From the NCBI GenBank assembly GCA_963822575.1, contig CAWGHZ010000007.1, positions 1,375,655-1,439,654 of the forward strand: DNA of 64,000 bases, in the 5' to 3' direction. A program made the position numbers and the translations under genes. This document shows positions 1 through 36,601 of this stretch, piece after piece; position 1 is the first letter of the stretch; each line of letters begins with the position of its first letter. The notes under the pieces are model-generated. The model had not been told where the DNA came from. It worked only from the letters and a program-made list of their open reading frames with translations, and did not search any database. This DNA comes from an uncultured Alphaproteobacteria bacterium. GTDB lineage: Bacteria > Pseudomonadota > Alphaproteobacteria > MPNO01 > DASWLB01.

Positions 1-649
1 CTGGCGGCTGTGGCAGCAGAATTTGCTCGACAAGGCATTCGACAAGGTGAAGGTGCTTTCGCTGTTCACCTTCCCCGCCCCGGTCATCAACACGCGCAAG
101 CCGGTCAAGACCGCCGAGGACATGAAGGGCCTGAAGTTCGCCGTGGCAGGGCGCGTCCTCGCGGACCTGATTACCGCCCTTGGCGCCGCGCCGGTCACAT
201 TGGGCCCGCCCGAATTCTACCAAGCCGCACAGCGCGGCGTCGTCGACGGCGTGTTCGTCGGCTGGTCGGCCATCACGACCTTCAAGATCGACGACGTGAC
301 GAACTACCACACCAATACCAGCGCCGGATATGCGCCGGCCTTCATGTTCATGAACAAGCGGAAGTTCGCGAGCCTGCCGAAGAAGGCCCAGGACGCCATC
401 GACAAGTATTCGGGCGCCCCTTACTTCAAACGCATGGGCGAGGTGACCGACCGGATGGACAAGGCGGGCGAACAGATCACCTCGGCAAAGAAGGGCCAGG
501 TCATCCTCAGCCTGTCGCCGCAAGAGAAGGCCAAGTGGAAGAAGCTCGCCGAGCCGATCGTCGACGATTGGGTCAAGCGCACGCCGGACGGCGCCCAGGT
601 GCTTGCCGCGTTCCGCAAGGCGCTGGACGAGATCCGCGCCGGCAAGTAG
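1..649 (+). CDS. DctP-like (TRAP-type) periplasmic solute-binding protein, C-terminal fragment (5' end outside window)
   Basis: ORF in frame to window edge; DLKGLK... and GA.P..MP..E.Y.A.QRGVVDG motifs shared with the three downstream paralogs. Confidence 0.7.
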   Translation, partial: WRLWQQNLLDKAFDKVKVLSLFTFPAPVINTRKPVKTAEDMKGLKFAVAGRVLADLITALGAAPVTLGPPEFYQAAQRGVVDGVFVGWSAITTFKIDDVTNYHTNTSAGYAPAFMFMNKRKFASLPKKAQDAIDKYSGAPYFKRMGEVTDRMDKAGEQITSAKKGQVILSLSPQEKAKWKKLAEPIVDDWVKRTPDGAQVLAAFRKALDEIRAGK

Positions 650-812
650 GCGCGCATCCCGTGTGCGAAGGTCCCGCGCTGACGCGCGGGACCTTCGCCG
701 TGCCGGCTTGCCGTCGCGATGGGCGCCGGCCCATAATGGCCGCAAAAGAGGCAATGCCGCCCACCGAGGAAACGCCGGCCATCCGGGCTGCGACCTGTCG
801 AGGGAGTGGATC

Positions 813-1820
813 ATGAAACGGACCGTTTTCGCCGCGCTTGCCGCGCTTGCCTTCGTCGCCGCCCCGGTCGCCGACGCCCGCGCCAAGGTGACGCTCAAGC
901 TCGCCTTTCCTGCCCCGCCGCAGTCGCAGGTCTATACCTGGGGGATCGGGCCTTGGATCAAGGACGTGGAGAAGGCGGCCGGCGGCGCCTTGGAGATCAA
1001 GTTCTTCCCCGGCCCGGCGCTCGCCACCTTCGGCAACGCGTTGGACCGGGTGACCAGCAACGTCACCCAGATCGCGTTCGGCGTGGAAGGCCCCTACGCC
1101 AACCTGTTCCGCAAGTCAGACGTCGCCGAAATCCCGTTCCTGTCGGAAAGCGACGAGAATGCGAGCGTCGCGCTGTGGCGGCTCTACAAACAGGGACTTC
1201 TCGACAAGGCGTACGAGCGGGTCGAGCCGCTCGCCCTGTTCGTGTTTCCGGGGTCGGGCATCCACACCCATTTCCGCGTCAAGTCCCTCGACGATCTGAA
1301 GGGCCTCAAGATGGCGGTCTTCGCCCGCTCGTCGGCGGAGTACGCCGAGCTTCTGGGCGCGACGCCGATCACCATGACGCCGTCCGACGCCTACCAGGCG
1401 ACCCAGCGCGGCCTGGTCCAATCCATCATGGTCGGCTGGTCGGCCATCCTGCCCTTCAAGCTGCAGGAGGTGGTGAATTTCCACCTTCAGCTCGCCCTCG
1501 GACAGGCGCCGGCCTTCGTGTTCATGAACAAGGGCGCCTATGCCGGCCTGCCCGCCGACGTGAAGCGGGTGATGGACGAATATAGCGGCGAGCCGTTCTC
1601 GCGCCGCATGGGCCACACCACCGACCGGCAGAACGAGCTGGGGGCAACCGTCGTGGGCAAGATGCCGGGCCACACGATCTATCGCCTGCCGCCCGAGCAG
1701 TCCGAGGTCTGGCATAAGCGCCTGGCGCCGGCCGAGGAGAAGTGGGTGAAGGCGACGCCCGACGGCGCCAAGATCCTGGCCGCCTACAAGGCCGAGCTCA
1801 CCAAGCTGGAAAAGAAGTAG
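813..1820 (+). CDS. DctP-like (TRAP-type) periplasmic solute-binding protein, paralog 2
   Basis: ATG at 813 with GAGGGAG RBS; signal peptide MKRTVFAALAALAFVAAPVADA; SBP_bac_7-like motifs (DDLKGLK, MVGWSAI, KWVKATPDG). Confidence 0.8.
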   Translation: MKRTVFAALAALAFVAAPVADARAKVTLKLAFPAPPQSQVYTWGIGPWIKDVEKAAGGALEIKFFPGPALATFGNALDRVTSNVTQIAFGVEGPYANLFRKSDVAEIPFLSESDENASVALWRLYKQGLLDKAYERVEPLALFVFPGSGIHTHFRVKSLDDLKGLKMAVFARSSAEYAELLGATPITMTPSDAYQATQRGLVQSIMVGWSAILPFKLQEVVNFHLQLALGQAPAFVFMNKGAYAGLPADVKRVMDEYSGEPFSRRMGHTTDRQNELGATVVGKMPGHTIYRLPPEQSEVWHKRLAPAEEKWVKATPDGAKILAAYKAELTKLEKK

Positions 1821-1836
1821 GCGCAGGAGCCTCCCG

Positions 1837-2841
1837 ATGAAAACCGTTGCCGTCGCCGCGGCGGTTGCCACAATGCTCGCCTTCGCCGCGCCCGGCAAGG
1901 CGGCGGAGCCCATGCAGCTCAAGTTTGCGAGCCCTGGCCCGCCCGTTGGCGCAATCTTTCGCGGGCTCTCCGCCTTCGCCGCCGACCTCGACAAGGAGGC
2001 CGGCGGCACGCTGGACGTGAAGATGTTCGCGGGCGCGTCGATCGCCAATTTCGGCAACGTCTACGACCGCACGATCAACGGCGTCGCCGACATCGGCTGG
2101 GGCATCATCGGCCCGATCTCCTCGCTGTTTCCCAAGACCAACGTCGTCACCCTGCCGTTCGAGGTGGATTCGGGCCAGGTTGCCGCGATGGCGCTATGGA
2201 ACCTCTACAAGAGCGGCGTGATCGCGAGCGAGTATCAGAGGGTGCAGCCGCTCGGCTTCGTCGTGTTCCCCAAGATATCGCTGCACGCGCACAAGCCAAT
2301 CCGCACGATGGCCGACCTCGACGGCCTCAAGGTCAGCGCCGAGGGGCGGGTGCTTACGCACAGCCTCGAGGCGCTCGGCGCGACGCCGATCACGATGCCG
2401 GTCACCGACATCTACCAGAGCCTGCAGCGCGGGCTGGTCGATGCCACCGCCATCGCGTGGCCCGCCATCCTCGCTTTCAAGCTCAACGACGTGACGCGCT
2501 ATCACCTGGACGTCAGCCTCGGCAACGACGACGGCTTCATCTTCATGAACAAGGGCGCCTATGGGCGGCTGCCGGCCAAGGGGCGCGCGGCGCTCGACAA
2601 GCTCACCGGCCCTGCGCTGGTCACGCGCATGGAGAAGCAGGTAGCGGACGAGACCGAGGGGGCGAAGACGTTCACCGAGCACAAGATGCATCAGCCCATT
2701 GCCACGCTCGCGCCCGACGAGGCGGCACGCTGGAAGGCCAAGGTCGCACCCTCGATCGAGCAATGGGTGAAGGCGACGCCCGACGGTGCACATGTCCTGG
2801 CGGCCTTCCGCGCGGAGGTGCCGAAGCTCAGCGCCAAGTAG
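1837..2841 (+). CDS. DctP-like periplasmic solute-binding protein, paralog 3
   Basis: Signal peptide; paralogous to the two upstream ORFs. Confidence 0.8.
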   Translation: MKTVAVAAAVATMLAFAAPGKAAEPMQLKFASPGPPVGAIFRGLSAFAADLDKEAGGTLDVKMFAGASIANFGNVYDRTINGVADIGWGIIGPISSLFPKTNVVTLPFEVDSGQVAAMALWNLYKSGVIASEYQRVQPLGFVVFPKISLHAHKPIRTMADLDGLKVSAEGRVLTHSLEALGATPITMPVTDIYQSLQRGLVDATAIAWPAILAFKLNDVTRYHLDVSLGNDDGFIFMNKGAYGRLPAKGRAALDKLTGPALVTRMEKQVADETEGAKTFTEHKMHQPIATLAPDEAARWKAKVAPSIEQWVKATPDGAHVLAAFRAEVPKLSAK

Positions 2842-2975
2842 CCCCATCGACCAGGACAAGCCGGCCGCCCGATCCACGCGGCCGCGACGGTTGCGGCGGC
2901 GCGCCGCGCCGGTGCGCGGCATCCGTCGTCTAACCCGAAGCGACCCATCCCGTCTGTCATGTCACGGAGAAGCAC

Positions 2976-3983
2976 ATGTACCGAACGAAGTTGTTGGCCC
3001 TTTGCGCCGCCGCACTGATCGCCACGCCGGCCCTTGCCCAGGAGCCGGCGAAGCTGAAATACGCATCACCCGCGCCGCCGCAGTCGCTGATCACCGTCTG
3101 GGGCGTCGGCCCCTGGCTCAAGGATGTGGTCAAGGAGTCCGGCGGCACCATCCAGATCCAGTCGTACCTCGGCGCCGTTCTCGGCAATTTCAATCAGGTG
3201 CTCGACCGAACCCGGGCCGGCGTCGACGATATCGGCTGGGGTATCCTGGGCCCGTATTCCGGCGAATTCCCGCAGACCGACGTCGCCTCCCTGCCGTTCA
3301 TCGCGCCGGAATCCAAGGCCTCGAGCATCGCGCTGTGGCGGCTCCTGAAGCGGGGCGTGATCAAGGACCAGTGGGACAGGGTGAAGGTGCTCGGCCTGTT
3401 CAACTTCCCGCCCGCGAGCTTCCACTCGAACAAGCCGATCCGCGGCCTCGCCGACTTCAAGGGGTTGAAGATCGGCGTGTCGGTGCGCGTCATCGCCGAG
3501 CTGGTGCGGGTCGCCGGTGCCGCCGCCGTCACCATGCAGCCCTCCGACATGTACCAGGCCGGGCAGCGCGGCGTGGTCGACGGGGTTGCCATCGGCTGGC
3601 CGGCCTTCTACCCGTTCAAGCTGCAGGAAGTGACGAAGTACCATATCGACGGCCCGTTCGGCGGCACGCCGTCGTTCGTCATCATGAACAAGAACTCGTA
3701 CGCCCGGCTTCCCGCCAAGGCGCGCGCCGCCTTCGACAAGCTGGGCGGCGAGACCCTGTCGGCCCACATGGGCGCCACGACCGACAAGATGGACAAGGAG
3801 GGCGAAGCCCGCGTGCGGGCGATGAAGGGTCACGAGTTCTTCACCCTCGCGCCGGCCGAGGAAGCAGCCTGGAAGAAAAAGGCTCAGCCGATCGTCGAGA
3901 AATGGATCAAGGCGACGCCGAACGGCCGCGCCGTCCTCGACGCCTACGAGGGCGAGTACGAAAAGTTGCTGAAGGGCCAGTGA
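2976..3983 (+). CDS. DctP-like periplasmic solute-binding protein, paralog 4
   Basis: Signal peptide MYRTKLLALCAAALIATPALAQE; same motif set. Confidence 0.8.
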   Translation: MYRTKLLALCAAALIATPALAQEPAKLKYASPAPPQSLITVWGVGPWLKDVVKESGGTIQIQSYLGAVLGNFNQVLDRTRAGVDDIGWGILGPYSGEFPQTDVASLPFIAPESKASSIALWRLLKRGVIKDQWDRVKVLGLFNFPPASFHSNKPIRGLADFKGLKIGVSVRVIAELVRVAGAAAVTMQPSDMYQAGQRGVVDGVAIGWPAFYPFKLQEVTKYHIDGPFGGTPSFVIMNKNSYARLPAKARAAFDKLGGETLSAHMGATTDKMDKEGEARVRAMKGHEFFTLAPAEEAAWKKKAQPIVEKWIKATPNGRAVLDAYEGEYEKLLKGQ

Positions 3984-4006
3984 CGCGGCGCGCCCCTGCC
4001 GTCATC

Positions 4007-4036
4007 GCGACCCTCGGGCCACGGCCTGAGGGTCGC
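4007..4036. terminator. 9-bp stem hairpin (GCGACCCTC...GAGGGTCGC) between convergent genes; possible bidirectional terminator
   Basis: Inverted repeat read directly; no U-tract. Confidence 0.35.
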
Positions 4037-4043
4037 GAATTCG

Positions 4044-5778: not shown

Positions 5779-6570
5779 ATGCTCGAGCTCTATCACCACG
5801 GCACGTCGGTCTGCGCCGCCAAGATCCGCATCGCGCTCGCCGACAAGGCGCTCGACTGGAAGGGCCACTACATCGACATCCTGGCGGGCGACCAGCTCAA
5901 GCCCGAATATCTCAAGATCAACCCCAAGGGCGTGGTGCCCACCCTGGTGCATGACGGGCACATCGTCCGCGAGTTGACCGTGATCGGCGAATATCTGGAC
6001 GACGCGTTCCCCGACAAGCCGCTCAAGCCCGCCGCCGCGCTCGACCGTGCCGCCATGCGCATGTGGACCAAGCGCCTGGATGAGGAGCTGCACCCGGCCA
6101 CCGCCATCGTCACCTTCGCCGTGTCGCACCGCCACGCGGTGCTCGCCAACCCACCGGCGGTGATCGACGAGTACGTCAACAAGTTCGGGCCGGCCGAGGC
6201 GTTGCGCCGCCGTGCGCGGCTCGAGCGCGGTATCGACAGCCCGGAGGCCGCGCCGGCGATCCGCACCTACGACAAGTTCCTCGCCGACATGGAGACAAGC
6301 TTGGCCGAGCGCGGGCCGTGGCTCGCCGGCTCCACCTTCTCGCTCGCCGAGACGGGGGTGATCCCCTACGTCAACCGGCTCGACATGCTGCAGCTTTCCG
6401 GCATGTGGACCGAGAAGCGCCCGCACCTCACCGACTGGTGGGCGCGCGTCAAGACGCGTCCGTGGTTCGAGCGCGAGATGCTCAGCTACGCGCCGGCACC
6501 CCTGCGCGCCATGATGAAGGAGAAGGGCGACGAGGCCTGGCCGACGGTGAAAGCCATCCTCGCCGCGTAA
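5779..6570 (+). CDS. Glutathione S-transferase family protein
   Basis: ATG 5779 preceded by AAGGAGGGAGGG RBS; N-terminal MLELYHHGTSVCAAKIRIAL thioredoxin-like GST fold. Confidence 0.8.
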   Translation: MLELYHHGTSVCAAKIRIALADKALDWKGHYIDILAGDQLKPEYLKINPKGVVPTLVHDGHIVRELTVIGEYLDDAFPDKPLKPAAALDRAAMRMWTKRLDEELHPATAIVTFAVSHRHAVLANPPAVIDEYVNKFGPAEALRRRARLERGIDSPEAAPAIRTYDKFLADMETSLAERGPWLAGSTFSLAETGVIPYVNRLDMLQLSGMWTEKRPHLTDWWARVKTRPWFEREMLSYAPAPLRAMMKEKGDEAWPTVKAILAA

Positions 6571-7287: not shown

Positions 7288-8505
7288 TCATTCCGCCGGG
7301 GTGGCCGCGGCGCTGCGTCGGCCCCAGGCGATCTCGTTGCCCGGCGTCGGATCGTGCGGAACCAGCGCCGCGCAGGCAAGCGAGCAGCAGGCGAAGCCGG
7401 CGCCGATCAGGAACACCGCCGACGGCGAGGTCAACCATACGAAGCCGAGCCCCGCCGGCAGTAATACCGCCGCGATGTGGTTGATGGTCGAGCTGACGCC
7501 CGCCGAGTTCGCCATGTCGGCCGGGTCGGCGATCTTCTGGTAATAGGTGCGCACCGCGATCGCCATGGCGAACAGCACGTTGTCGAGGATGTAGAGCCCG
7601 ACGGCGAGCCAGGGCGTCGCCACGAACGCATAGGCGACGAACAGGCCGATCAGCGCGGCGTATTCCACCAACAGCGCGCGCCGCTCGCCCCAGCGGACGA
7701 TCAGCCGCCCCACGTTCGCGCCGAGGAACACGTTGATCGCGTAGTTGGTGAGCAGCATCAGCGTCATCGTGGCGGCGTCGAACCCGAAGCGCTGCACCAT
7801 CAGGAAGGGTGCGAACACGCTGATGATCTGGCGCCGGCCGCCGGAGAGGAAGATCAGCGCATAGAATAGCTTGTAGCGGCTGCGCAGGACCAGCTTGCGG
7901 CTCTGGCGCACCGCGCCCTCATAGCGCGGGTAGAGCGCCCAGGCGGCGAGCGCCACGGCGATCGCGATGGCGCCGCCTGTCAAATAGACGTACTTCATGT
8001 CGAGTTCGGCGACGCGCAGCAGAAGCCAGATCCCGCCGAAGCTCGCCAGCGAGGCGAAGGACGTGAAGCCGATGATCCGGCCCATCGTCTCGGGCGCGCG
8101 CGACTTGTCGACCCACTGGAACACCAGCGACTGGCGGATCGCCTCGAGATAGTGGAAGCCGACCGAGGCGATCAGCGCCACGGTGTAGAGCCCGGCGATC
8201 GACGGGAAGAAGCCGGTGATCGCCGTCCCGAGACCGAGGACGGCGAGCGAGAAATACGCGAGCGCCTGCTCGCGCACGACGAGAAGCACGAGCAGGACCG
8301 AGACCGCGAGCAGGCCCGGGATCTCGCGCACGGTCTGCAGGAAACCGATATCGACACCGTTGAAGCCGATTCGCTCCACCGCGAAATTGTTGATCAGCGC
8401 CTGCGACGTGGCGAGCGCGACGGCCATCGCCACCGACAGCACGTAGAGCAGGACCGACGGGCGGCGCCAGGCCGCCGCGCCGGCCCCGAGAGCTCCGGAC
8501 GGCAT
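7288..8505 (-). CDS. MFS transporter
   Basis: About 12 predicted TM segments; start chosen at ATG (MPSGALG) with GGGAG RBS; track start is TTG. Confidence 0.75.
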   Translation of the reverse strand: MPSGALGAGAAAWRRPSVLLYVLSVAMAVALATSQALINNFAVERIGFNGVDIGFLQTVREIPGLLAVSVLLVLLVVREQALAYFSLAVLGLGTAITGFFPSIAGLYTVALIASVGFHYLEAIRQSLVFQWVDKSRAPETMGRIIGFTSFASLASFGGIWLLLRVAELDMKYVYLTGGAIAIAVALAAWALYPRYEGAVRQSRKLVLRSRYKLFYALIFLSGGRRQIISVFAPFLMVQRFGFDAATMTLMLLTNYAINVFLGANVGRLIVRWGERRALLVEYAALIGLFVAYAFVATPWLAVGLYILDNVLFAMAIAVRTYYQKIADPADMANSAGVSSTINHIAAVLLPAGLGFVWLTSPSAVFLIGAGFACCSLACAALVPHDPTPGNEIAWGRRSAAATPAE

Positions 8506-18822: not shown

Positions 18823-19711
18823 TTGACCGTCGCCAGCATGACCGGATTCGCCCGCGCCGAGGGATTCCAGGACGGCTATGCCTGGTCGTGGGAGATCCGC
18901 AGCGTCAACGGCCGCAACCTCGACGTCCGCGCCAAGCTTCCGCCCGGCAACGAGGCGCTGGAGATGAAGGCGCGCACGCTCTGCGCCGAGCGCTTCCGCC
19001 GCGGCTCGATCTCGCTCACCTTGAACCTCACGCTGCACCGAACGGGCCGCTTCCGTACGGGTCAACCGCGATGCGCTCGACCGCATGGTGGCGCTGGCCC
19101 GCGAGGTCGGCGCCGGGATCGGCGCGCCGCCGCCCCGCATCGAAGGCCTCCTGGGGCTTTACGGCGTGGTCGAGCGCATCGAGGAGGAGGAGACCGAGGA
19201 CGTCCGCGCGGCGCGCGAGGCGGCCATGGAACGGACGCTCGCCGACGCGCTCGATGCGCTCGCCCGCATGCGCGCGGACGAGGGCGCGCGGCTCCACGAC
19301 ACGGTGGCGGGCCACCTCGCCCGTATCGCCGCCCTGGCCCAGGACGCCGCCAAATCCGCCGCCGCCCAGCCCGAGGCGCTGAAGCGCCGGCTTGCCGAGC
19401 AGGTCGCGGCGCTCCTGGACGCGCGCGTCGGCGTTTCGGAGGAGCGCCTGGCGCAGGAGGCGGCGCTCCTCGCCACCAAGGCCGACGTACGCGAGGAAAT
19501 CGACCGGCTCAACGCGCACGTCACCGCGGCGCGCGAGCTGCTCGCCGCCGGCGAGGCGGTCGGGCGGCGGCTCGACTTCCTGTGCCAGGAGTTCAACCGC
19601 GAAGCCAACACGCTGTGCTCGAAAGCGACCGATATTGACCTCACCCGCATCGGGCTCGACCTCAAGGCGTCGATCGAGCAGCTCCGCGAGCAGGTCCAGA
19701 ACATCGAGTAG
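18823..19711 (+). pseudogene. yicC: YicC-family stress-induced protein; frame broken by two apparent single-base deletions at C/G homopolymers near 19040-19065
   Basis: YicC N-domain in frame 1 and DUF1732 C-domain in frame 2; the third frame reads HPNGPLPYG across the junction, implying CCC->CC and GGGG->GGG. Confidence 0.75.
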
Positions 19712-19715
19712 CGCC

Positions 19716-20354
19716 ATGCCGTCCGACCCCATCGCCCGCCGCGGGCTCATGCTGGTGCTGTCCTCACCCTCGGGCGCAGGCAAGACCACCATCTCGCGCG
19801 CACTGCTCGAACGCGACCCGACGCTGGAGATGTCGGTCTCGGTGACCACGCGCCCGCGCCGCCCCGGCGAGAAGGAGGGGCGCGACTACTACTTCATCGA
19901 TCCGACCGAGTTCGCCCTGATGCGCAACCGTCAGGAGCTGCTCGAGCACGCCAAGGTGTTCGACCACTATTACGGCACGCCACGCGCGCCGGTGGAGGAC
20001 GCCATCGCACGCGGGCGCGACATCGTGTTCGACATCGACTGGCAGGGCACCCAGCAGCTCAAGCAGACCGCGCGCGACGACCTCGTCAGCGTATTCATCC
20101 TGCCGCCCTCGACCGCCGAGCTGGAGCGGCGGCTGCAGACCCGCGCGCGGGACCCCAAGGACGTGGTGGCGCGCCGCATGGCCAAGGTGGTGGACGAAAT
20201 CAGCCACTGGGCCGAGTACGACTACATCATCGTCAATCGCGACGTGGAGGAAAGCGTGCGCCACGTCGAGGCCATCGTCACGGCCGAGCGCCTGCGCCGC
20301 GAGCGCCAGACCGGCATCACCGATTTTGTCGCACGGCTGCGCGAGGGACAGTAG
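19716..20354 (+). CDS. gmk: Guanylate kinase
   Basis: P-loop SSPSGAGKTT; conserved yicC-gmk order. Confidence 0.9.
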   Translation: MPSDPIARRGLMLVLSSPSGAGKTTISRALLERDPTLEMSVSVTTRPRRPGEKEGRDYYFIDPTEFALMRNRQELLEHAKVFDHYYGTPRAPVEDAIARGRDIVFDIDWQGTQQLKQTARDDLVSVFILPPSTAELERRLQTRARDPKDVVARRMAKVVDEISHWAEYDYIIVNRDVEESVRHVEAIVTAERLRRERQTGITDFVARLREGQ

Positions 20355-20362
20355 GTTTAGTC

Positions 20363-20443
20363 GTCATTGCGACGCGCGCAGCGCCGAAGCAATCCAGTGG
20401 CCGCAGACGTTGCCTAGGATTGCTTTGCTTCGCCCGCAATGAC
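20363..20443. repeat. ~80-bp imperfect-palindrome intergenic repeat (copy A), forms a long hairpin; REP/MITE-like
   Basis: GTCATTGCGA...GCAATCCAG..GGCCGCAGACG..CTGGATTGC...TCGCAATGAC; near-identical copy at 34817-34897. Confidence 0.75.
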
Positions 20444-20449
20444 GGAAAC

Positions 20450-21301
20450 CTATGCGCCTTCCCGCTCTACGACCGCCCTGGCCAGGGCACAGAACTGTTC
20501 GACAGCGAGCTCCTCGGCGCGGGCGGTGGGGGGCACGTCAGCGGCAGCGAGGAGCGCCAGCGGGTCGCCGCCCAGAGACGCGAGGGACGAGCGCAGCATC
20601 TTGCGGCGCTGGCCGAAGGCGGCGGCGGTGACGCGCTCGAAGGCGGAGAACTCGGCCGCGGCAAGCGGCGCGGGGCGTGGCACGATCCGAACGACCGAGG
20701 AGACGACGCGCGGCGGCGGGGTGAAGGCCCGCGGATCGACGTCGAACAGCCGCTTCGCCGCGGCGCGCCAGCCGACCAGCGCGCCGAGCCGGCCGTAGGC
20801 CGCCGTGCGCGGTGCGGCGCAGAGCCGCTCGGCCACCTCCTTCTGCACCATGACGGTAAGGCTCTCGTAGGCCGCGATGTCGCGCAGCCAGCGGACGATC
20901 AGCGGCGTCGCCACGTTGTAGGGCAGGTTGGCGACGACGCGCCGCGGCACCGTCGCGAGCACCACCATGTCGATCTCGCGCGCGTCCCCCTCGATCACCG
21001 TGAGGTGGCCAGGATAGGCTGCGGCCAGCTCCCCGAGCGCGGCGATGCACCGCCGGTCGAGCTCGATGGCGAGCACGCTCGCCCCCTCCGCCAGCAGCGC
21101 GCGGGTAAGGCCGCCAGGGCCGGGCCCGATCTCGATTGTCGTGCCTGCGCCCAATGGGCCGGCGGCGCGGGCGATCCGGCGCGTCAGGTTCAAATCGTTG
21201 AGGAAGTGCTGGCCGAGCGATTTGCGCGCGGCGAGCCCATACCGGGCGATGATTTCGCGGAGCGGCGGCAGCGTCGCCGCCTCGGCCGGCCGGTCAGGCA
21301 A
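20450..21301 (-). CDS. rsmA: 16S rRNA (adenine1518/1519-N6)-dimethyltransferase RsmA/KsgA
   Basis: LGQHFL, EIGPGPGGLT and NLPYNVATP motifs. Confidence 0.9.
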   Translation of the reverse strand: MPDRPAEAATLPPLREIIARYGLAARKSLGQHFLNDLNLTRRIARAAGPLGAGTTIEIGPGPGGLTRALLAEGASVLAIELDRRCIAALGELAAAYPGHLTVIEGDAREIDMVVLATVPRRVVANLPYNVATPLIVRWLRDIAAYESLTVMVQKEVAERLCAAPRTAAYGRLGALVGWRAAAKRLFDVDPRAFTPPPRVVSSVVRIVPRPAPLAAAEFSAFERVTAAAFGQRRKMLRSSLASLGGDPLALLAAADVPPTARAEELAVEQFCALARAVVEREGA

Positions 21302-34045: not shown

Positions 34046-34813
34046 GTGCCGTTCGAAACGATCGCCTTCGTCGCCGCCGAGACCGCGACGGCCCAGTCGG
34101 CACTCAAGCGCCTGCGCAAGCGCTACGGCAACTCGCCGCCCGAAACGGCGGACGTGATCGTCACTCTCGGCGGCGACGGCACGATGCTCGAGACGCTGCA
34201 CCGCTATCTCGACCGCGAGGTGCCGTTCTACGGCATGAACCGCGGCACGGTCGGATTTCTCCTCAACGAGTTCAGCGAGACGAAGCTGCGCGAGCGGCTC
34301 GCGCGCGCGACGCCGGTGCGCCTCCACCCGCTGCGCATGACCGCCCGCACCATCGCCGGCGGCGCATCCGAGGCCATCGCCATCAACGAGGTGTCGCTGC
34401 TGCGCGAGAGCCGCCAGGCGGCGAAGCTCCGCATCCGGATCGACTCGCGCGTGCGCATGTCCGAGCTCGTCTGCGACGGGGTGGTCATCGCGACGCCGGC
34501 CGGCTCGACCGCCTACAACCTCTCGGCGCACGGGCCGATCGTGCCGCTCGGCACCGGGCTCCTCGCGCTGACCCCGATCAGTGCGTTCCGCCCGCGGCGC
34601 TGGCGGGGTGCGCTTCTGCCCGCCTCGGCGCAGGTGACCATCCAGATATTGGAACCGGCGAAGCGGCCGGTCTCGGCCGTCGCCGACTATACCGAGGTGC
34701 GCGACGTGCGCGAGGTGCGCGTCCGCGAGGCCAAGGACATCCGCCTCACGATCCTGTTCGACCCCGAGCACAATCTCGAGGAGCGCATCCTGAACGAGCA
34801 GTTCATCCCATAG
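34046..34813 (+). CDS. nadK: NAD+ kinase
   Basis: GGDGTML motif and NEVSL motif; GTG start. Confidence 0.85.
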
Positions 34814-34816
34814 ACC

Positions 34817-34897
34817 GTCATTGCGAGGACCGCAGCGACGGAGCAATCCAGGGGCCGCAGACGTAGCCCTGGATTGCTCCGCTTCGCTCGCAATGAC
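34817..34897. repeat. ~80-bp imperfect-palindrome intergenic repeat (copy B)
   Basis: Matches the 20363-20443 copy at about 85% identity and keeps the stem; sits just after the nadK stop. Confidence 0.75.
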
Positions 34898-34939
34898 GAC
34901 CCAGGCGGGTATAATCGCTACGACGAAACGGAGGACCGA

Positions 34940-36601
34940 ATGACCGCGGCCGCCCGGGGCTACGCCGACCTGCACGACCATATCGAGGCCCTGGAGAAGG
35001 CGGGGCTGCTCACCACCATCGACGCGCCGGTGAACAAGGACACCGAGCTGCACCCGCTGGTGCGCTGGCAGTTCCTCGGCGGCATCGCAGAGCCCGAGCG
35101 CAAGGCGTTCCTGTTCAAGAACGTCGTCGATGGGCACGGCCGCAAGTACGACATGCCCGTCGTGGTCGGCGCGCTCGCCGCCAACGCCGCCGTCTACGCC
35201 ACCGGCATGGGCGTGAAGGTCGCCGAAATCCAGGCGAAGTGGGACCACGCGATGGACCATCCCGTCGCGCCGCGCCTGGTGAACGAGGCGCCGTGCCACG
35301 AAGTGGTGGTCGAGGGGGCCGACCTGATGGGCCCCGGCAAGGGGCTCGACGCGCTGCCCATCCCCGTTTCGACGCCGGGCTTCGATTCCGCCCCGACGCT
35401 CACCGCCACCAACGTCATCACTAAGGACCCGGAAACCGGCGTGCAGAACATGGGCACGTACCGTGCCGGGCTGAAGGCGTCGGACCGGCTGGTGGTGCGC
35501 ATGGCGACGCGCATCGGCGGTGCCGGCGGGTATCTCCACTGGCAGAAATACAAGAAGCGCGGCGAAAAGATGGAATGCGCCATCGTCGTCGGCTGCCCGC
35601 CCTACGTCGCCTATGTCGCGCCGCAGAAGCTGCCGCTCGACATGGACGAGATCGAGCTCGCGGGCGGGCTCGCCGGCGCGCCGATCAACGTCGTCCGCGC
35701 CCGCACGGTGGACCTGATGGTGCCGGCCGAGGCGGAGCTGGTGATCGAGGGCATCATCGACCCCGAGATGGTCGAGCCCGAAGGCCCGTTCGGCGAGTCG
35801 CACGGCCACGTCGCGCTCGAGGAGTTCAACATGCCGATGCGGGTGACGGCCATCACCCACCGGCGGAACGCCGTGATCCCGTCCTATATCAGCCAGGTCG
35901 CGCCGTCGGAATCCTCGGTCATCAAGCGCGTCGCCTACGAGCCGATCTTCCTCCATCATCTGCGCGACCAGCTCGGCATCCGCGGCGTCAGCCGCGTCTC
36001 CATGCACGAGAAACTGACCGGGCTTCTCCGCATCACCATCATCAGCTTCAAGCGTGCAACGCCGAAGACGGAGGTGTGGCGCGCGCTCTACGCCGCCGCG
36101 GCCTACCGCTCGGACTGGTCGAAGATCTGCATCGCCGTGTCGGAGGACATCGACCCCGACAACGCCGACGCGATCCTATGGGCCATGGCCTACCGCATCA
36201 ATCCGGTGGAGGACGTGAAGACGCTGGGCCACCGCGCCCAGGGGCACGGACCGAAACGCGAGCATCACGGCGAGGAGGACTCGACGCTGCTGATCGACGC
36301 CACGATGAAAAGCGACATGCCGCCCCTTGCCCTGCCCGCTCGCGAATACATGGAGGGCGCGAAGAAGCTGTGGGAGAAGATCGGCCTGCCCAAGCTCAAC
36401 CCGGAATCGCCTTGGCACGGCTACTCGCTCGGCGACTGGACCGAGCAGTGGGCCGACATGGCGAAGCGCGCCGCCGCGAGCGATTGGCTCGAGAATGGCA
36501 AGCGCACGCTGCAGCGCCAGCGCAAGAACATCGTGCCCGAGACCTCCGTCCGCGACGTGGAGGAGGGCTGGGACGGCAAGAATGGCGACGCCAAGAAATG
36601 A
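34940..36601 (+). CDS. UbiD-family (prFMN-dependent) decarboxylase, paralog 2, first gene of a 4-gene operon
   Basis: GGAGGACC RBS; UbiD-like with EGPFGESHGH motif; stop overlaps next start (ATGA). Confidence 0.8.
   Translation: MTAAARGYADLHDHIEALEKAGLLTTIDAPVNKDTELHPLVRWQFLGGIAEPERKAFLFKNVVDGHGRKYDMPVVVGALAANAAVYATGMGVKVAEIQAKWDHAMDHPVAPRLVNEAPCHEVVVEGADLMGPGKGLDALPIPVSTPGFDSAPTLTATNVITKDPETGVQNMGTYRAGLKASDRLVVRMATRIGGAGGYLHWQKYKKRGEKMECAIVVGCPPYVAYVAPQKLPLDMDEIELAGGLAGAPINVVRARTVDLMVPAEAELVIEGIIDPEMVEPEGPFGESHGHVALEEFNMPMRVTAITHRRNAVIPSYISQVAPSESSVIKRVAYEPIFLHHLRDQLGIRGVSRVSMHEKLTGLLRITIISFKRATPKTEVWRALYAAAAYRSDWSKICIAVSEDIDPDNADAILWAMAYRINPVEDVKTLGHRAQGHGPKREHHGEEDSTLLIDATMKSDMPPLALPAREYMEGAKKLWEKIGLPKLNPESPWHGYSLGDWTEQWADMAKRAAASDWLENGKRTLQRQRKNIVPETSVRDVEEGWDGKNGDAKK

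Follow-up and report, generated by a model that had tools for sequence, protein, structure and literature searches.

Two gene-end repeats in an alphaproteobacterial genome fragment are very probably dimers of CGTC-tagged REP units

The two intergenic repeats found next to the genes gmk, rsmA and nadK are, very probably, each a dimer of CGTC-tagged REP units with the tags placed outside (HH), i.e., a non-autonomous, multi-copy element that would spread in single-stranded DNA and would give a stable stem-loop at the 3' end of RNAs. The CGTC element is multi-copy and non-autonomous, it inserts, or survives, beside stop codons, and it turns over between relatives. Four other readings, a terminator, a small RNA, a classical MITE and a GTAG REP driven by a RAYT, are all disfavoured.

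Two copies next to three stop codons

The window, i.e., the whole 64-kb stretch of DNA that was analysed, was searched for repeats and contains two copies of an 83-nt sequence in the same orientation, with 86% identity between them. The original prediction had placed two copies of ~80 bp here, each right after a stop codon, that of gmk and that of nadK, and its positions were correct to within 1 nt, with the guanylate kinase gene ending at 20354 and the NAD kinase gene at 34813. The 21-nt core GCAATCCAGNGGCCGCAGACG has two matches in the window, against 0.01 expected from shuffles. The copies and the genes that border them are the following.

19392-20354, plus strand: gmk ORF, matching Guanylate_kin (Pfam, E 1e-46)
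20352-20354, plus strand: TAG stop codon of gmk, 7 nt before copy A
20362-20444: copy A
20450-20452, minus strand: stop codon of rsmA/ksgA, 5 nt beyond the far end of copy A
20450-21301, minus strand: rsmA/ksgA ORF, matching RrnaAD (Pfam, E 2e-45)
ending at 34813, plus strand: nadK ORF, matching NAD_kinase and NAD_kinase_C (Pfam)
34811-34813, plus strand: TAG stop codon of nadK, 2 nt before copy B
34816-34898: copy B

The genes gmk and rsmA/ksgA are convergent and the gap between them is almost all copy A. Downstream of copy B there is a co-directional UbiD-like gene, with its ATG at 34940, 41 nt past the end of the copy. Both copies had been described as hairpin-forming, and each is indeed predicted to fold into a long imperfect hairpin, with energies well below those of shuffles both as RNA (copy A -43.7 kcal/mol, z = -4.5; copy B -53.9 kcal/mol, z = -8.0) and as DNA (copy A -26.1 kcal/mol, z = -5.0; copy B -34.6 kcal/mol, z = -9.2). 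The claim that the variation between the copies is compensatory stands only in part. The stems differ by one true double change, A-T (GAAGC/GCTTT) in copy A vs. G-C (GGAGC/GCTCC) in copy B, and by one change from G.T to G-C, but the remaining differences are just mismatches that weaken the hairpin of copy A.

A 7-nt inverted repeat, TAGGTTT ... AAACCTA (20352-20358 and 20446-20452), brackets copy A, takes in both convergent stop codons and lengthens the predicted hairpin. This bracket may be a coincidence, because copy B has no counterpart.

The repeat had also been said to produce spurious ORF starts, (M)LCFARND and (M)LRFARND, and we did find them as real TTG-initiated frames inside the right arms. 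The one of copy B opens a TTG-started ORF (34874-36601) in frame with the UbiD-like gene, and in this way the right REP unit of copy B can be mis-annotated as an N-terminal extension of 22 codons of the UbiD-like protein (LLRFARNDDPGGYNRYDETEDR before the real M; 34874-34939). In the same intergenic region there is a perfect TATAAT hexamer (34910-34915), 12 nt past the end of copy B and ~25 nt before the ATG of the UbiD-like gene. The sole position that could serve as its -35 is within the right REP unit and matches poorly, and no promoter was reported by the scan.

Each copy is a pair of inverted units

Two inverted short units describe each copy better than a single hairpin does. The layout of the unit is CGTC - ATTGC - GA - small variable apical hairpin - GAA - GCAAT - CCAG, and the units of the window measure 30-36 nt. 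We refer to the basal stem ATTGC/GCAAT as P1 and to the apical stem as P2. A covariance model trained on related units (R1) found in the 64-kb window exactly four units, i.e., two dimers, the next-best match having an E of at least 0.26. The components of the two copies are listed here with their R1 matches.

20362-20397, plus strand: left unit of copy A, 36 nt; CGTC, P1 ATTGC/GCAAT, GA, apical hairpin GCGC-GCA-GCGC, GAA, CCAG; R1 match 20360-20399, plus strand, 38.7 bits, E 8e-9
20398-20413, plus strand: spacer of copy A, 16 nt, TGGCCGCAGACGTTGC, with the core GGCCGCAGACGT common to copy B
20414-20444, minus strand: right unit of copy A, 31 nt, degenerate; CGTC ATTGC GG GCGAAGC AAA GCAAT CCTAG; R1 match 20412-20446, minus strand, 21 bits, E 1e-3
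34816-34851, plus strand: left unit of copy B, 36 nt, long class; CGTC ATTGC GA G-GA-CCGCAGC-GA-C GGA GCAAT CCAG; R1 match 34814-34853, plus strand, 35.2 bits, E 8e-8
34852-34868, plus strand: spacer of copy B, 17 nt, GGGCCGCAGACGTAGCC, delimited from the sequence and the alignment of the copies
34869-34898, minus strand: right unit of copy B, 30 nt, short class; CGTC ATTGC GA GCGAAGC GGA GCAAT CCAG; R1 match 34867-34900, minus strand, 43.7 bits, E 3e-10

All four units open with the CGTC tag and have ATTGC/GCAAT as P1, and the tail is CCAG in three of them and CCTAG in the other. In both copies the left unit belongs to a long class (35-36 nt) and the right unit to a short one (29-31 nt), and the two tags point outward (HH). 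What the original prediction took for a loop shared by the copies is really the spacer of the dimer, the common sequence core being nonetheless there. Folded with DNA parameters, the left unit of copy A gives P1 plus the apical stem.

The tetranucleotide GACG, complement of the CGTC tag, appears inside units of the long 35-nt class (e.g., window 34816-34851). In DNA folding the pairing of the tag with GACG is an alternative, and the presence of GACG can also be explained by the geometry of tandem G.A pairs with a closing C-G.

Looking for other CGTC-type hairpins in the window, we found only three chance-level or unrelated hairpins, without further R1 matches. A hairpin with a CGTC prefix (4000-4043), CGTC ATCGCGACCCTC ...loop... 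GAGGGTCGCGAA, has a stem of 12 bp with a single mismatch and lacks a CCA tail; it is unmatched by R1 and is probably an unrelated gene-end hairpin. It is located just past the fourth paralogue of a series of four tandem paralogous coding repeats (179-3967; period ~1.02-1.17 kb, 60-76% DNA identity between copies), apparently four related genes arrayed in tandem.

A family spread over distant phyla and phage-like DNA

That further copies exist beyond the two of the window, the lack of which would have counted against the original prediction, was clear from public genomes, where they are many. An exact-pattern scan with one genome per species gave at least 120 loci and a scan of viral contigs at least another 120, so that the unit is present at 240 or more public loci. 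By our own arithmetic ~70 single matches to the 19 specified bases are expected by chance in the full scan of 596 Gb, and therefore only paired or structure-validated matches have been relied on. With both arms or an R1-validated unit as evidence, the hosts, Alpha- and Gammaproteobacteria among them, include Bradyrhizobium, sphingomonads, Rhodospirillales, Micavibrio and Rickettsiales, also Legionellales, Coxiellaceae, Solimonas, Lysobacterales, Neisseriaceae and a "Deltaproteobacteria" MAG, and Bacteroidales, Spirochaetaceae, Chitinispirillales, Opitutaceae and Elusimicrobium. A contig of Candidatus Collierbacteria (CPR), L080, carries two units (698-734 and 3280-3322) in AT-rich surroundings, the second detected by R1 only (25.8 bits) and then confirmed by eye.

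The element is found too on plasmids or secondary replicons of Methylosinus trichosporium OB3b, Novosphingobium, Methylocystis, Legionella lytica and Methylobacterium, and one Novosphingobium replicon has it at 40 or more places. It is contained in prophage records of Helicobacter canis, and in the phage-like locus L165 units are located between the genes for terminase, portal and prohead protease. In the annotated collections no annotated feature was found under the matches to the element.

The figures given below refer to 484 units (274 distinct) from 240 loci, among the matches listed. GTC was fixed by the search pattern, which also contained CCAG with at most one substitution allowed, so that the conservation of the two among the collected units does not count as independent evidence. 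The base 5' of GTC was C in 403 (83%) and T in 60 (12%) of 485 collected units, C or T adding up to 95%. The tail was CCAG in 238 of the 274 distinct units and CCA in 260, partly imposed by the pattern. The 5' internal loop was GA in 264 of the 274, and at the 3' side GAA (177), GCG (42) and GTG (30) were found. Unit length went from 27 to 47 nt and the apical hairpin from 2 to 9 bp. In the 29-nt class the apex is GCG-N-AGC, and every position is conserved at 90% or more except the middle base of the loop (A 93, C 73, T 27, G 20); an apex of this kind, free at its middle base only, characterises mini-hairpins with a G-N-A triloop. In the 35-nt class the same apex is flanked by tandem G.A/A.G pairs inside one G-C pair.

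Among dimers the tag-outward arrangement was by far the most frequent (173 HH, vs. 17 tag-inward or TT and three tandem or HT), and partners of unequal length predominated, 29+35 nt being seen 58 times. Outside any dimer there were 112 of the 484 units, with clear singletons in distant phyla.

Some loci depart from this arrangement. In two Lysobacterales loci (L023 4615-4700 and L024 5510-5600) there are hybrid dimers, in which an ATTGC-type arm faces a partner (reverse complement) of the form GTTCATGGAGAG...GAAGCGATCCAG. In these hybrids only the inner part of the long hairpin can pair, which argues that the unit, and not the long hairpin, is the module. Sibling units with another basal stem, e.g., GTCTTCCTGAACGAAGTGAAGGAAAT, adjoin an ATTGC-type unit at L027 (~7840-7915) and L016 (~6090-6180), and suggest that the basal stem covaries between sister families with a common GA...GAA core. 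In the viral contig L170 (5282-5491) there is a head-to-tail array of 3.5 copies with a 59-nt period and 94% identity; the period is one REP unit plus an identical 30-nt linker, a tandem layout that is otherwise very rare in the family. We considered this array as a CRISPR and rejected it, the "spacers" being all the same sequence and not unique.

Covariation of the unit fold

In an alignment of 61 sequences selected for clean apical stems (A3), 97.4% of the cells pair, vs. 81% in shuffles and 20-56% when the partners are slid. The double-change cells were 72 against 22.7, and all nine apical pairs covary; pairs 7-43 and 8-42 are A-U and U-A in 59-60 of the 61 sequences. In the unselected set, apical pairs 3-5 were Watson-Crick in 89-91% of cases, vs. 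56-70% when the 3' halves were swapped between units of equal length. In P1 a compensatory variant, ATCGC/GCGAT, was found in 11 distinct units. Single units calculated with nearest-neighbour DNA parameters showed no stability gain over shuffles (about -2.7 kcal/mol, z about 0), so that the fold of the unit rests on covariation and not on predicted stability. The covariation points to selection on the single-strand fold, i.e., the unit is selected to form a specific single-strand hairpin.

Gene ends, gain and loss, and neighbours

The proximity to stop codons seen in the window is a preference of the family. We analysed the 137 dimers that were far enough from the ends of their loci, considering ORFs of at least 150 codons that point into the dimer, and a stop codon within 30 nt was found for 53% of them, vs. 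10% of random positions in the same loci. This bias could mean that insertions are tolerated at such places, and not that the element has a function.

The nearest named relatives of the RsmA and NadK proteins of the window are from uncultured Stellaceae and other Rhodospirillales-type Alphaproteobacteria. The corresponding sites in four loci of relatives were as follows.

L242, RsmA 82% identity: gmk-rsmA site with a 10-nt gap, repeat absent
L243, RsmA 84% identity: gmk-rsmA site with 48 nt, unrelated in sequence
L244 (same genome as L242), NadK 85% identity: nadK-ubiD site with a 66-nt gap, repeat absent
L245, NadK 93% identity: unit present after the nadK stop; the contig ends inside the unit

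Since relatives differ at orthologous sites, the element has been gained or lost over short evolutionary distances. The end of the L245 contig inside the unit that follows nadK (2817-2866) looks like an assembly break at the repeat. Elsewhere in L242 (16023-16791) a DDE-transposase insertion (DUF4096 and DDE_Tnp_1) and extra genes are located between an SDR gene and yceG, and are absent in L243.

All-against-all clustering of 2,593 ORFs from 120 genome loci gave no protein family shared within 1.5 kb of the units. Recurrence at these 120 loci was confined to ABC and SDR proteins of a generic kind and to ORFs translated from the repeat, and there was no recurrence of RAYT, GIY-YIG or IS110 proteins within the same 1.5 kb. 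At L165 and L188 a gene flanked by inverted units was considered as a candidate transposase, but the genes there are actually terminase, portal, protease and a capsid-sized ORF.

Alternative explanations

A role as terminators, one of the options of the original prediction, here taken as Rho-independent and possibly bidirectional ones for gmk/rsmA and nadK, would suit strong G+C-rich hairpins placed right past stop codons and, in copy A, between convergent genes. However, there is no T-run after either arm, the flanks being GGAAACC and ACCCAGG, scans of 20200-20600 and 34700-35050 gave no terminator-like site, and the next co-directional gene starts only 41 nt past copy B. In addition, the orientation of the unit varies, it can stand alone as one short unit, and it is found between phage head genes that run in the same direction. 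We hold termination to be improbable. The same original prediction had offered a small RNA, and the element could be, more broadly, a dedicated structured RNA, either a small RNA or a cis-regulatory element of the adjoining genes. Some repeat elements do yield small RNAs in other bacteria (PMC5896051), and the covariation supports a conserved single-strand fold. Against this, the Rfam search that had been proposed as a check returned no match in the whole window at gathering score, copy A reaching only chance level at E up to 10, and the promoter scans of both loci gave no promoter-like site. The unit lies beside unrelated genes, in both orientations, in many phyla and in phage-like contigs. 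The apical GCG-N-AGC and the tandem G.A pairs are features of stable DNA mini-hairpins. This explanation seems to us hardly credible.

The other two alternatives are mobile elements of known types, and the label "MITE/REP-like" in the original prediction covered both a part that survives, the REP-like one (HH dimer of CGTC units), and a part that does not, the classical MITE. In the latter the arms would be the terminal inverted repeats of an insertion sequence of the DDE type, whose transposase would mobilise the repeat. Inverted arms with a variable centre, and presence or absence varying between relatives, are what a MITE would show, but single units are common, with singletons in distant phyla, neither of the window copies is flanked by a target-site duplication or direct repeat, and at the 120 genome loci no transposase or parent element recurs near the units. 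Moreover, the arms are covarying hairpins, which is REP-like and unlike the terminal repeats to which a transposase binds, and we regard a classical MITE as very unlikely. A REP or REPIN of the GTAG type, moved by a REP-associated tyrosine transposase (RAYT), follows the same logic as the element described here, i.e., short hairpin units, inverted dimers, location 3' of genes and structure in the single strand. In this case it is the tag (CGTC, not GTAG) and the neighbourhood that disagree, with no Y1-transposase-like family recurring within 1.5 kb of the units at the 120 genome loci, and, in the published survey of CGTC elements (PMC3733652), no RAYT gene flanked by CGTC units. We consider this origin quite improbable.

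Possible mobilisation and effects

The dimer of CGTC-tagged REP units might be explained as selfish DNA that would spread via a single-stranded intermediate, with the mobilising enzyme supplied in trans. A tentative and somewhat doubtful extension is that the ATTGC subtype is recognised by a very widely distributed enzyme that acts on single-stranded DNA and could be a replication or repair factor of the host or else a phage-borne nuclease of the HUH type. This is proposed because the subtype is near-identical across phyla and occurs in phage- or GTA-like head modules, and because it combines a fixed tag, the GA/GAA loop and the G-N-A mini-hairpin without a transposase nearby. If true, the identification of this enzyme would solve the problem of the "orphan REPs" left open in 2013.

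Once inserted, the element would be transcribed together with gmk, rsmA and nadK, at their 3' ends. By analogy with REP work in E. coli, a very stable 3' stem-loop in the mRNA might block 3' exonucleases and protect the message, and a hairpin 2-7 nt past the stop codon might hinder terminating ribosomes. The E. coli REPs stabilise upstream mRNA and, within 15 nt of the stop codon, stall ribosomes and lower translation (Liang et al. 2015, as summarised in PMC12306157). An mRNA-stabilising role is plausible here from position. All three stop codons of the window are within 7 nt of a unit, and ribosome stalling at gmk, rsmA and nadK is therefore a concrete prediction. If the elements stall ribosomes or protect 3' ends like the E. 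coli REPs, the expression of these three genes would be modulated. For the window itself the repeats are of importance chiefly to annotation: they explain two spurious TTG-started frames and mark intergenic sites that vary between close relatives.

Comparison with known systems

Among known short extragenic palindromes are the GTAG REPs, BIMEs and REPINs with RAYT of E. coli, Pseudomonas and Stenotrophomonas. Like them, the elements described here are located just downstream of genes, form inverted doublets that can be folded as one long hairpin or as two small ones, and presumably go through single-stranded DNA intermediates. In contrast, GTAG REPs have a GTAG tag and species-specific sequences, whereas the units described here are near-identical across phyla, and GTAG REPs have their own RAYT gene flanked by REPs, while for CGTC elements no such gene is known and none was found at the loci analysed. 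A different kind of likeness is that of the apex GCG-N-AGC of the 29-nt class to DNA mini-hairpins of the d(GCGAAGC) type with a G-N-A triloop. This is a structural motif and not a genetic element, and its relevance here would be to the stability of the unit in single-stranded DNA.

The CGTC-tagged REP superfamily, with the families CGTC-1 to CGTC-4, was described by Di Nocera, De Gregorio and Rocco (2013, BMC Genomics 14:522, PMC3733652). The superfamily includes dRS3 of Neisseria and RPE-4 and RPE-6 of Rickettsia. Its members have an unpaired terminal CGTC tag (with the variants TGTC and CCTC), a stem that starts with AT and a CCA tail; they form mostly HH dimers, TT being rare and HT negligible, with spacers of 20-100 nt or shorter that are conserved within a genome. 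They are intergenic, at <20 bp from the 3' ends of convergent or co-directional ORFs, and are found mainly in Alphaproteobacteria, but also in Bacteroidetes, Spirochaetes, Neisseria, Coxiella, Rickettsia and Micavibrio. No RAYT gene flanked by CGTC units and no associated transposase are recorded in that paper (PMC3733652). The units of the window and the collected ones share with this description the tag, the AT at the start of the stem, the CCA tail and the excess of HH dimers, together with the location at 3' ends, the phylum range and, at the loci analysed, the absence of a dedicated transposase.

The differences are in the stem and in part of the hosts. CGTC-1 to CGTC-4 are described with continuous stems of 8-9 bp and loops of 4-5 nt (PMC3733652), a geometry that our unit does not have, since in it a 5-bp P1 is followed by the conserved internal loop GA/GAA and by an apical hairpin that varies from 2 to 9 bp, is often GCG-N-AGC and at times has tandem G.A pairs at its flanks. 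The hosts found here include Elusimicrobia, Melainabacteria, Opitutaceae, Chitinispirillales and Collierbacteria, which are unlisted in that paper. The supplementary peptide tables of Di Nocera et al. contain the subtypes VIPAKAGI and VIAGLDPAIH and not the ATTGC subtype. A literature search by sequence strings gave only unrelated primers, and Nunvar et al. (2013) contains no matching sequence. Given the interrupted stem and the variable unit length, we place the element at the level of the superfamily, of which it would be a member with a different stem geometry.

The finding is, then, real but ordinary, being of a kind described in 2013, and it is in itself of low novelty. What interest remains is in how the ATTGC subtype is mobilised and in its near-identity in phage-like DNA and in phyla that are very far apart. 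To the superfamily our data add an extension of its apparent host range and a calibrated structural model, R1.
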